64,000 nucleotides of DNA from Candidatus Pacearchaeota archaeon (GCA_017608345.1 JAFCGA010000002.1:79023-143022), one strand, 5' to 3'; positions 1-18,341 are shown, numbered from the stretch's first letter. Numbers and translations: made by a program. The notes: generated from the letters alone by a model not told the origin.

Positions 1-751
1 AAATTTTATTTTCTTTCATTGATTCTATGAGTGCTTTGATGTTGAAATCTGAGTTAGGCAATTGGAGATGGTTCTTTTCTCCTTTAGCGCCATAGTTGAT
101 CCCAGAAACATGCATATGTAAGTTAGACAGTCCCGGAGCTCCGAGATAATCTTTTACAGTATCGAATACTGCGTCGAACTCGCGTTTAGAATTGAACTTG
201 CCATTTGAGCGAGCATGCAGGTGAGCAAAATCAATGCACAGCCAGACTTGTTTGATTTCTTTGGCTAGCTGAAGTAATTCTTTAAGCTCTCCGAACTGAG
301 AAACTTTTCCAGTTGTCTCTGGCGAGACGCGGATCGGATTATTCTCTTTCTTTAACTCTGCAACCATTTCAATCAGCTGAGCTTTAACTATTTCGTAAAC
401 TTCTTTTGGATCTTTTTTCATGTAATACGCTGGATGAAATGTAACTGAAGTTGCGCCAGCAAGATTCCCGATTTTTGCAGACTTTAAAATTCGCTGTACG
501 CTAGCCTTAATTTTCGCTTCTTCTGGAGAATTGAGATTGATATAATATGGCGCGTGAACTGTAAGAGCAATTTTATTCTTTGTAGCTGTTTCTTTGACTT
601 TTTTAGCTAGCTCCGGAGTCATGTAAATGCCGCGCACAAATTCAATTTCTGTAGCTGTTAATCCTAGCTCAGCAACGCGCTTTATTCCTTCTACTGTGCC
701 GGATTTCTTTGTGGAATGTGGTATACCTGCAGTACCGATTAATATTGACAT
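1..751 (-). CDS. Endonuclease IV-like AP endonuclease (xylose-isomerase-like TIM barrel); C-terminus lies beyond the window edge
   Basis: Not in the ORF track because it is open to the window edge. My translation from the ATG at 751 reads MSILIGTAGIPHSTKKSG...LTVHAPYYINL...VTFHPAYY...SPETTGK...IDFAHLHAR, the His/Glu/Asp ligand pattern of the AP endonuclease 2 fold. Confidence 0.65.
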   Translation of the reverse strand, partial: MSILIGTAGIPHSTKKSGTVEGIKRVAELGLTATEIEFVRGIYMTPELAKKVKETATKNKIALTVHAPYYINLNSPEEAKIKASVQRILKSAKIGNLAGATSVTFHPAYYMKKDPKEVYEIVKAQLIEMVAELKKENNPIRVSPETTGKVSQFGELKELLQLAKEIKQVWLCIDFAHLHARSNGKFNSKREFDAVFDTVKDYLGAPGLSNLHMHVSGINYGAKGEKNHLQLPNSDFNIKALIESMKENKI

Positions 752-984: not shown

Positions 985-1310
985 AGTAGCGAGACTATAA
1001 GCCGCCTTATGTTCTGCTCCGTGGTCGGACAGCAGACGCAAGCATTCTACTTAGCGGTCTAGGACCTTGCACTCACTCGAATCGACAAGTTTCACTCACA
1101 ACTCAGCAACCTCACCGAGGATCATCGTGCGCTAAGCATGATTGCTTTCTGTCTATATCGATTTACAGTATTAACCATAGCTAGATTTCCTAGCCGAGCT
1201 GCCTTTTCTTTCACTCCGAGAAGCGAAATCATTAGGGCGTAAGAGGGCGGACTTTCCTCAGTGCTTTGGAGATTAATCCAAGAACTCCGATAGCTTGCCG
1301 TCCCGCTACT
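985..1310 (-). ncRNA. rnpB: RNase P RNA
   Basis: The minus-strand reading contains GAGGAAAGTCCGCCC (CR-I) and GCAGAACATAAGGCGGCTTATAG (CR-IV/V-like). The termini AGTAGCGGGAC and GTCTCGCTACT pair as P1. Confidence 0.85.
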
Positions 1311-6661: not shown

Positions 6662-6846
6662 TGGACCCGGAGGGATTTTCAAGCTACAAAGTTGCCGAAG
6701 GTATATTCGGAGCGACGAAGTCGCGTAGTAAAATACCTTTTCTTTGGGCTACCTTACACCTTTCTTTTTCTAAAAGAAAGGGGCAGTTTGAACCCCCAGC
6801 CTCCTGCATGCAAAGCAGGCGTTCTACCGGGTTGAACTACAGGCCC
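6662..6846 (-). tRNA. tRNA-Ala(UGC) in the 16S-23S spacer, with an inferred 111-nt insertion (about 6676-6786) in the T-loop
   Basis: The sense strand reads GGGCCTG TA GTTC..GAAC G CCTGC TT TGC AT GCAGG AGGCT GGGGG TTCAAA [111 nt] T CCCTC CGGGTCC A. The acceptor closes with the G3:U70 Ala identity pair. Confidence 0.8.
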
Positions 6847-6964
6847 ATAGTTTTAAGACAGATTGGTCGATTTATAAGGTTTTTCTTTGGGCCACTTATC
6901 GCGAACCGAAGTTCGCGATCTGTTCGTCCGCGTACGCTTGGAATTAGCGTACAAACATGAGTAT

Positions 6965-7698: not shown

Positions 7699-7817
7699 TT
7701 CAGCCTTGCGACCGTACTCCCCAGGTGGCCTGCTTAACGACTTCTCTCCGACACTGCATGCTCACGAAGAACATGCAGCACCTAGCAGGCAGCGTTTACG
7801 GCTAGGACTACGAGGGT

Positions 7818-7882
7818 TATTAGGGCTCTGGAAAATAGTTTTCTTTTTCCAGGGTTTTTCTTTTTAAAAAAAGAAAAAGCCT
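7818..7882 (-). other. 16S insertion 2 (65 nt, putative intron) splitting GGATTAGAT | ACCCTCGTAGTCC
   Basis: The interrupted block is the 785-806 'universal primer' region. The insert folds into two hairpins: TTTTTCTTTTT/AAAAAGAAAAA and CTGGAAAA/TTTTCCAG. Confidence 0.75.
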
Positions 7883-10498: not shown

Positions 10499-10641
10499 TG
10501 CAGGGGACAGGGTTCGAACCTGCGTAGGCACTAAGCCACTGGGTCCTAAACCCAGCCCGTTCAATCGCAACCAACGCTAAGCTATCTTCTTTCCGCCAGC
10601 GCTTTCTTAAAGGGCTGCTTTGACCACTCCGGCACCCCTGC
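10499..10641 (-). tRNA. tRNA-Leu(UAG) with an inferred 57-nt insertion (about 10561-10617) in the D-loop
   Basis: GCAGGGG TG CCG GAGTGGTCAAAG [57 nt] A CGG G CTGGG TT TAG GA CCCAG, followed by a long variable arm, GCAGG TTCGAAC CCTGT CCCCTGC A. Confidence 0.75.
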
Positions 10642-16827: not shown

Positions 16828-16947
16828 TGCCCCCAGCGGGATTTACCTCGAACGTACCGTTCGTATAAATGCTCGTCACGCTCGCATTTGAACCCACGTC
16901 ACTGGCTTGAAAGGCCAGCATGCTTGGCCGGGCTACACTATGGGGGC
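16828..16947 (-). tRNA. tRNA-Glu(UUC) with an inferred 45-nt insertion in the T-loop
   Basis: GCCCCCA TA GTGT..GCAT G CTGGC CT TTC AA GCCAG TGAC GTGGG TTCAAAT [45 nt ending GGTAAAT] CCCGC TGGGGGC A. Confidence 0.75.
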
Positions 16948-17733: not shown

Positions 17734-17805
17734 TATATGTTCGTAATGTATGTTTATTATATGTCTTATTGGATATTATTCCGCCGTCAGTTTTTAAAAA
17801 GAATA

Positions 17806-17981
17806 TGGCCGAGATGAGATTTGAATTCGTGCACCAATTCCAGTTTAAGGGAAAGGGCGGCTCACGACCTCTGGTTGGCTTAAACGCATCGTAGCCGATG
17901 CGTGTCATATAAGACCAGCGCTCTAACCAGATTACTCACTTTCTCTTTTTCTAAAAGAGAAAAGCTCTAAGCTACTCGGCC
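17806..17981 (-). tRNA. tRNA-Ile(UAU) with three inferred insertions: D-loop 17931-17965, canonical 37/38 site 17877-17907, T-stem/T-loop junction 17826-17860
   Basis: Exons of 16+23+16+20 nt assemble into a 75-nt cloverleaf: GGCCGAG TA GCTT AGACTGGTTA GAGC G CTGGT CTTATAA ACCAG AGGTC GTGAG TTCAAAT CTCAT CTCGGCC A. At the 37/38 insertion, CTTA/TAAG forms the 4-bp helix of a bulge-helix-bulge (BHB) splice motif. Confidence 0.7.
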
Positions 17982-17984
17982 AAG

Positions 17985-18214
17985 CGCCCGTGGTCAGATT
18001 TTCTAAAGCCTGGGAACCAAGGTTCCCTTCTTTCTTCCAGAGAGAAATCCCCGAGATTTCTCTTGGCCACGCGAAACTTAACGAGTTTCGCTTGGTTTCC
18101 CGAGGGTTTTTCTTTCTTCGGGAAGAAAGAAAAAGGCTCTTTGAACTGACGGCCTCACGGTTTCTAACATAAGGCTAACAGCCGTGCGCTATAACCAGAC
18201 TAAGCTACACGGGC
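17985..18214 (-). tRNA. tRNA-Asn(GUU) with an inferred 14-nt anticodon-loop insertion (18162-18175) and a 141-nt T-loop insertion (17999-18139)
   Basis: GCCCGTG TA GCTT..AGC G CACGG CT GTT A [14] A CCGTG AGGCC GTCAG TTCAAA [141] T CTGAC CACGGGC G. It lies only 3 nt upstream of the tRNA-Ile 5' end. Confidence 0.65.
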
Positions 18215-18341
18215 AAGATAATACTCATAGATTCGTTTATAAAATTTGCGCAAGCGAATTTTATTCTCGAAAATCCGCGATTTTTGAGTTGAAAGAGTTT
18301 CTTATCGGAAGAAATATATTATAGTAAAACATTATTTCATT

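Follow-up and report, generated by a model that had tools for sequence, protein, structure and literature searches.

A 176-nt locus on the minus strand of the window (positions 17806-17981; the window being the whole 64,000-nt stretch of DNA analyzed here) is very probably a functional, orthologous tRNA-Ile(UAU) gene of a Woesearchaeota/Pacearchaeota-type DPANN archaeon. On removal of three inserts, the locus yielded a 75-nt canonical cloverleaf with the anticodon UAU, and the gene was assigned four exons and three introns from an end-to-end Rfam match, the ARAGORN call on the spliced product and orthology. Read from 17981 to 17806, the minus strand consists of GGCCGAGTAGCTTAG, 35 nt, TCTGGTTAGAGCGCTGGTCTTATA, 31 nt, AACCAGAGGTCGTGAG, 35 nt and TTCAAATCTCATCTCGGCCA. 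Exon 1 (17967-17981) holds tRNA positions 1-15 (GGCCGAG TA GCTT AG), exon 2 (17908-17931) positions 16-37 (the 3' part of the D-loop, the D-stem, and the anticodon stem and loop as far as A37), exon 3 (17861-17876) positions 38-53 (A ACCAG AGGTC GTGAG) and exon 4 (17806-17825) positions 54-73 (TTCAAAT CTCAT CTCGGCC A), all on the minus strand. The anticodon TAT lies at 17909-17911 within exon 2, the discriminator is A73, and CCA is not encoded.

No call was obtained for the unspliced locus from ARAGORN, from Rfam at its gathering threshold or from an Rfam E-value search of the whole window. The Rfam tRNA model (RF00005) aligned with the locus end to end (model positions 1-71 of 71), leaving three large unaligned inserts, with a score of 27.1 bits (E = 0.0012 in a 401-nt search); the shortfall from the gathering score of 29 was due to three insert penalties and a mis-aligned T-arm. 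In that alignment the T-arm insert had been put in the variable region, giving four non-standard T-stem pairs, and we rejected this placement. The 53/54 junction was chosen instead because it gave a perfect T-arm, identical to that of the orthologues. ARAGORN recognized the 75-nt spliced product as tRNA-Ile(tat) with a perfect cloverleaf, and when introns 1 and 3 alone were removed it returned tRNA-Ile(tat) with a 31-nt intron. After splicing, all 21 pairs are standard and the core positions U8, A14, G18G19, A21, U33, G53, T54-T55-C56, A58 and C61 are intact. The fold of the whole gene reached -65 kcal/mol (z = -4.8 against shuffled versions). Among 262 tRNAs from related loci, the nearest body with a different anticodon was the tRNA-Ile(GAU) of a relative, whose variable loop and T-arm are identical to those of the window gene.

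All three junctions carry the core of the bulge-helix-bulge (BHB) motif, which is cut by the archaeal splicing endonuclease. Junctions were enumerated as all site pairs with a 4/4 central helix and two 3-nt bulges, with cuts after the second bulge nucleotide. Intron 2 (17877-17907, minus strand; 31 nt at 37/38) had the best-scoring BHB in the whole region, a strict hBHBh' motif composed of H1 CTGGT/ACCAG (5 bp), the bulge TA|T, H2 CTTA/TAAG, the bulge CC|A and an inner helix formed either by GAC/GTT or by the 8-bp stem ACGCATCG/CGATGCGT; its local fold had a z of -4.1. Intron 3 (17826-17860, minus strand; 35 nt, inserted after T-stem position 53 and before T-loop position 54) has a relaxed motif (HBh'), CGTG[AG|C]...CACG[AA|T], with a 4/4 H2 and the inner helix CGCC/GGTG; it lacks an outer helix. 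This helix-bulge-helix was present in the minimum free energy (MFE) structure whether the whole gene or its local context was folded. For these two introns, the boundaries given by an earlier sequence-only reading proved exact: no other junctions restore the loop CTTATAA or the arm GTGAG/TTCAAAT/CTCAT. The 37/38 motif of that reading (CTTA/TAAG, CC|A and the 8-bp stem) is also present. The clean BHB core of intron 3 had been absent from that reading. Its two broader claims, a tRNA gene with three insertions and the anticodon UAU, also held, the first by the full-length Rfam alignment and the spliced cloverleaf in ARAGORN, the second by BHB-defined splicing, which gives the loop CUUAUAA. We also looked for a splice that would change the anticodon, and no other BHB-compatible splice gave a cloverleaf with a different one. 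Splice pairs after 17930/17907 or 17911/17864 deleted the anticodon arm and left no cloverleaf.

The D-loop junction is the least certain of the three. Intron 1 (17932-17966, minus strand; 35 nt at 15/16) was placed by BHB enumeration together with the D-loop consensus of the orthologues. In this register, GCTT[AG|A]...GAGT[AA|T], H2 is 4/4, H3 has 6 bp and the restored D-loop is AGTCTGGTTA; two pairs of the central helix are G·U and there is no outer helix. An alternative register, 17933-17965, would give a 33-nt intron, CTTA[GA|G]...TGAG[TA|A], and a 12-nt D-loop. The orthologue consensus is AG[C/T]CTGGTTA, and 17932-17966 is preferred over the 17931-17965 of the sequence-only reading because all 37 aligned sequences have C or T at position 16, the window gene included when 17932-17966 is removed. 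The insert of that reading is therefore real, but its boundary is not favored by the BHB and the orthologues; the D-loop intron probably occupies 17932-17966, one base off the earlier call, with a boundary ambiguous by 1-2 nt. This shift leaves the anticodon unaffected. Junction folding was favorable for introns 2 and 3 but not for intron 1, whose BHB was absent from the local MFE fold (local z = -0.8). Intron 2 has both outer and inner helices and introns 1 and 3 have the inner helix alone (HBh', relaxed), so that a broad-specificity EndA would be required. When the introns were shuffled with their junctions fixed, a 4/4 central helix appeared in 1.4-2.8% of shuffles, and a 4/4 helix plus an inner helix of the observed length in at most 0.07% for each intron (5e-5 for intron 1).

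Orthologues were collected by scanning metagenome contigs for an exact match to the 23-nt D/anticodon arm, which returned at least 120 stretches. This element, CTGGTTAGAGCGCTGGTCTTATA (17908-17930, within exon 2), is identical in L001, L002, L020 and at least 120 metagenome contigs. Metagenome stretches and genome loci together gave at least 124 orthologous tRNA-Ile(UAU) genes of Woesearchaeota/Pacearchaeota-type DPANN archaea, all with an identical D/anticodon arm. For exon 3, the string AGGTCGTGAG is identical in L146 and in the tRNA-Ile(GAU) of L054. From these orthologues, 112 complete genes were recovered by the parser, 109 of which had no D-loop insert; 89 of the 112 contained the 37/38 intron alone, and a few more, mis-scored through acceptor mismatches, are also intron-free in the T-arm. 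Among the matches listed, approximately 15 orthologues add a T-loop intron at 59/60 and two tRNA-Ile(UAU) genes are intron-free. The window gene is the only one of the at least 124 orthologues listed to have three introns, and none of the others has an intron at 53/54. Two further inserts are independent gains in other lineages of tRNA-Ile(UAU): in L175 (~665-725, minus strand), a D-loop intron of ~47 nt whose BHB, at 14/15, is relaxed, and in L131, a 22-nt insert that separates the variable loop from the T-stem.

The 37/38 introns of the clade, whose lengths range from 14 to 238 nt, have conserved ends (5' TGAC and 3' TCTAAGAG) and follow a common splice rule. The four nucleotides preceding the last two of the intron pair 4/4 with CTTA(32-35) in 74 of 84 distinct introns, the pairing 4-mer being TAAG in 58 of the 74, and 4/4 pairing with CTTA(32-35) at any other offset was found in none of the 84. 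Intron 2 of the window gene (TAAG followed by CC) obeys this rule, and its TGAC...TAAG ends are common to the clade. When 37 distinct spliced sequences were aligned, 99.7% of the stem cells were paired and nine pairs were compensatory, compared with 23-47% paired in slid-partner controls, although acceptor pairing was partly imposed by the parser and the D and anticodon arms were fixed by the search pattern. Four of the nine covarying pairs are in the T-stem, which was constrained by neither. We also built a clade covariance model, R1, from the 37 spliced orthologues. On the unspliced window gene R1 gave a partial 16-bit match, because three long inserts were penalized. The intron mode of ARAGORN mis-placed the intron in some orthologues (L002, L084 and others), which it assigned to other isotypes, Ser(tga), Ala(tgc) and Leu(aag) among them, so that the AUA decoder will be mislabelled when genomes of this clade are annotated automatically.

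The surroundings of the gene are archaeal: the window (~38% GC) contains an archaeal rRNA operon with a tRNA-Ala in its spacer, and a Top6A gene located 1.2 kb upstream of the tRNA has its closest relatives (73-74% identity) in Woesearchaeota and Pacearchaeota MAGs (DPANN). Many of the next-best Top6A relatives (L014-L080, 43-50% identity) were on contigs labelled Phycisphaerae/Planctomycetota, Myxococcaceae or Elusimicrobia, and these bacterial-labelled sequences may represent a topoisomerase VI that bacteria obtained from DPANN-like archaea or have in common with them. At 985-1310 (minus strand), a match to archaeal RNase P RNA covered the full model with 69.7 bits against a gathering score of 84, which suggests that this RNA is divergent or reduced. 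A tRNA-Asn(GUU) gene (17985-18214, minus strand) ends 3 nt upstream of tRNA-Ile. It received no ARAGORN call and a partial Rfam match of 13 bits, and was delineated from its sequence and BHB enumeration; its two introns, of 14 and 141 nt, lie at 37/38 and 59/60, respectively. A TATA-like box, TTTTATAAA (18236-18244, minus strand), is centred ~26 nt upstream of G1 of tRNA-Asn, the usual archaeal geometry for a promoter, and an oligo-T tract, TTCTTTTT (17796-17803, minus strand), a putative archaeal terminator, starts 2 nt downstream of the 3' end of tRNA-Ile. Because of the 3-nt spacing, the upstream putative promoter and the downstream oligo-T tract, the two genes are likely to form a dicistronic Asn-Ile transcript. 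L002 and L020 have the same tandem of tRNA-Asn(GUU) and tRNA-Ile(UAU), likewise located just downstream of Top6A, and there both tRNA genes have the 37/38 intron alone.

Non-canonical introns are present in all five tRNA genes of the window. The tRNA-Ala(UGC) gene (6662-6846, minus strand), located in the 16S-23S spacer, has a 111-nt intron with a strict BHB at 59/60 (6676-6786); its true 3' half, TCCCTC CGGGTCC A, is at 6662-6675 and G3:U70 is intact, whereas ARAGORN called 6754-6847 with a wrong 3' end and Rfam covered model positions 8-63 alone. The tRNA-Leu(UAG) gene (10499-10641, minus strand) was a 143-nt Rfam match; its variable arm is long and its D-arm contains an intron of ~60 nt. 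The tRNA-Glu(UUC) gene (16828-16947, minus strand) was detected by R1 alone, not by ARAGORN or Rfam; it has a T-loop intron of ~45 nt, and the junctions needed to restore the T-loop have a relaxed BHB with a 3/4 central helix. ARAGORN and Rfam at the gathering threshold thus missed three of the five tRNA genes of the window, and ARAGORN misplaced the 3' end of a fourth. With every tRNA gene of the window interrupted, including the tRNA-Ala of the rRNA operon, the genome must process such introns.

Of the Ile codons, 33% are AUA, which occurs 29.5 times per 1000 codons, nearly twice as often as AUG; an efficient AUA decoder is needed. In the pathway that we propose, tRNA-Ile would probably be transcribed together with the adjacent tRNA-Asn, and RNase P and RNase Z would trim the ends of the transcript. 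The three BHB motifs would then be cut by an archaeal EndA of broad specificity and the exons rejoined by an RNA ligase, and a CCA tail would be added to the tRNA, which is 75 nt long before CCA. Once charged, the mature UAU tRNA, with U34 presumably modified, would read AUA in place of agmatidine (TiaS) and tRNA-Ile2(CAU), as in ARMAN, Nanoarchaeum and Korarchaeum, and TiaS would have been lost. Neither EndA nor TiaS was found in a Pfam scan of 30 ORFs of the window. The sequence-only reading had regarded UAU tRNA-Ile as rare; this is true of archaea across the literature, but in the Woesearchaeota/Pacearchaeota clade it is the rule (at least 120 contigs), and a UAU tRNA is the normal solution for AUA in this large clade.

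The main competing explanation, which we consider improbable but worth weighing, is that the tRNA is spliced as proposed while TiaS and tRNA-Ile2(CAU) are also kept, the UAU tRNA being a redundant or supplementary AUA decoder. Room for it is left by the 64 kb of the genome that are visible and by the literature searched, in which no report of tiaS or agmatidine in Woesearchaeota or Pacearchaeota was found. Against it, tRNA-Ile(UAU) goes with the loss of tiaS and tRNA-Ile(CAU) in every archaeal lineage examined (ARMAN: PMC3239211), no TiaS domain was found among 30 window ORFs, and ARAGORN called no CAU tRNA in 1.9 Mb of related loci, a non-random sample. Nor was a tRNA-Ile2(CAU) found within the 64-kb window, although such a stretch is poor evidence for the genome as a whole.

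A decaying pseudogene, in which random insertions have accumulated in an old tRNA-Ile(UAU) copy while AUA is read by a gene elsewhere (a second UAU copy, or tRNA-Ile2(CAU) with TiaS), is very unlikely. It would agree with the fact that three inserts were seen in the window gene alone among the at least 124 orthologues listed, that standard finders miss the locus, and that the genome is visible over 64 kb only. However, the window gene retains all 46 positions that do not vary among the 37 aligned sequences, its 21 stem pairs are all standard, and the syntenic position next to tRNA-Asn has been kept. Moreover, each insert has a 4/4 BHB central helix exactly at the junction that restores the cloverleaf, and the four other tRNA genes of the window, including that of the rRNA operon, are interrupted likewise.

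Intron 1 appears to have relatives elsewhere in the window. Its 11-bp hairpin, TTTTCTCTTTT/AAAAGAGAAAG, which contains one G·U pair, is identical at 21 of 22 aligned positions to the first hairpin of the T-loop intron of tRNA-Ala, with a further match to a 65-nt insert of the 16S gene. This 16S rRNA insert (7817-7881, minus strand) lies inside the universal GGATTAGATA|CCCTCGTAGTCC region (785-806), a binding site of common primers, and resembles the 5' part of the T-loop intron of tRNA-Asn; a quick manual check revealed no strict BHB at its obvious junction. In each of these three comparisons, none of 500 shuffles reached the observed score, although these statistics are generous because the hairpins are low-complexity pyrimidine/purine sequences. 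The homology of the D-loop hairpin with the tRNA-Ala and 16S modules, noted by the sequence-only reading, is supported by these figures, which suggest one intron family common to tRNA and rRNA genes. The least probable of the explanations, that the gene is functional with its D-loop insert retained as an expansion hairpin or removed at other junctions, might draw on the two possible registers, the presence of two G·U pairs in the central helix of the preferred register, the missing outer helix and a BHB that is not the local MFE, but a 35-nt insert at 15/16 would disrupt the D-loop/T-loop core, the combination of a 4/4 helix, correct 3-nt bulges and a 6-bp inner helix arose in 5e-5 of shuffles, the same hairpin module sits inside the strict-BHB T-loop intron of tRNA-Ala, and L175 alone of the other 123 orthologues listed carries any D-loop insert. 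For the spliced tRNA-Ile(UAU) gene, we suppose that the 37/38 intron is ancestral in the clade, and that those in the D-loop and at 53/54 were gained recently in the window lineage alone. The D-loop intron is probably a member of the hairpin family that also occurs in this genome's tRNA-Ala, tRNA-Asn and 16S rRNA genes. This hairpin-intron family may be actively spreading and colonizing tRNA and 16S rRNA genes.

The 37/38 intron was present in 122 of the 124 tRNA-Ile(UAU) genes among the matches listed, and in the same loci ARAGORN called introns in 4 of 57 tRNA-Glu and 0 of 14 tRNA-Asn genes. Such near-universal retention may point to an intron-dependent step specific to tRNA-Ile(UAU). C/D-box motifs were found in none of 84 37/38 introns. 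Intron-dependent modification is exemplified in yeast by the pseudouridines made by Pus1 at positions 34 and 36, and in C. merolae by pseudouridylation that the introns gate; by analogy the intron might be kept across the clade for the modification of the anticodon uridines, an idea that we put forward tentatively and regard as doubtful. If it were true, UAU could read AUA without reading AUG. To our knowledge, no Pus1-type dependence is known in archaea. Both the near-universal retention of this intron in tRNA-Ile(UAU) and the intron family shared by tRNA and rRNA genes can be followed up experimentally.

Comparison with known systems places the window gene within two published kinds of tRNA gene. 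First, three introns are the published archaeal maximum, reported in Thermoproteales, where intron transposition among tRNA genes has also been described (PMC4033280). As in Thermoproteales, similar intron sequences recur across the tRNA genes of one genome and an EndA of relaxed specificity would be needed. However, the host there is a hyperthermophilic crenarchaeote, whereas the window belongs to a low-GC (~38%) DPANN archaeon, to which the range of three-intron tRNAs is now extended, and here the intron family also includes an insert in 16S rRNA. The enzyme may differ as well: an alpha4 EndA with an L3 loop, a form associated with disrupted tRNA genes, has been suggested for DPANN (PMC5829648), in contrast with the (alpha-beta)2 EndA with a crenarchaeal loop in Thermoproteales. 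The predicted tRNA sets of Pacearchaeota and Woesearchaeota are incomplete (PMC5829648), and the window gene provides a concrete example of such "missing" DPANN tRNA genes that standard finders fail to call, which distorts estimates of tRNA complement and codon capacity for DPANN lineages.

Second, ARMAN-2, -4 and -5 have tRNA-Ile(UAU) and lack tiaS and tRNA-Ile(CAU), and the pre-tRNA-Ile(UAU) of ARMAN-2 contains a 25-nt intron at 37/38 with a strict hBHBh' motif, which is cut in vitro by the epsilon2 EndA of ARMAN-2 (PMC3239211). The window gene is likewise a DPANN tRNA-Ile(UAU) with a strict hBHBh' intron at 37/38, but whereas the ARMAN gene has this intron alone, the window gene has two others, located at 15/16 and 53/54. 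Among 167 archaeal genomes, tRNA-Ile(UAU) was found in 2, those of Nanoarchaeum equitans and Korarchaeum cryptofilum, which also decode AUA with a UAU tRNA, and the UAU gene of Korarchaeum has an intron whereas its GAU paralogue has none (PMC6000648). Those are single genes in two isolated genomes, in contrast with the at least 120 contigs of one clade and the three introns of the window copy observed here. A likeness in arrangement is seen with the red alga C. merolae, in which the same isoacceptor has introns in the same three arms. In this alga, excision of the anticodon intron comes last, and pseudouridine formation at positions 34, 36 and 55 is gated by the introns. Since the red-alga gene is eukaryotic, this resemblance is of independent origin. 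Three-intron tRNAs (Thermoproteales and the red alga) and DPANN tRNA-Ile(UAU) (ARMAN and Nanoarchaeum) have both been published, and the window gene therefore represents no new category; it joins two known kinds, the BHB multi-intron tRNAs and the DPANN tRNA-Ile(UAU), in a single, unusually fragmented gene.
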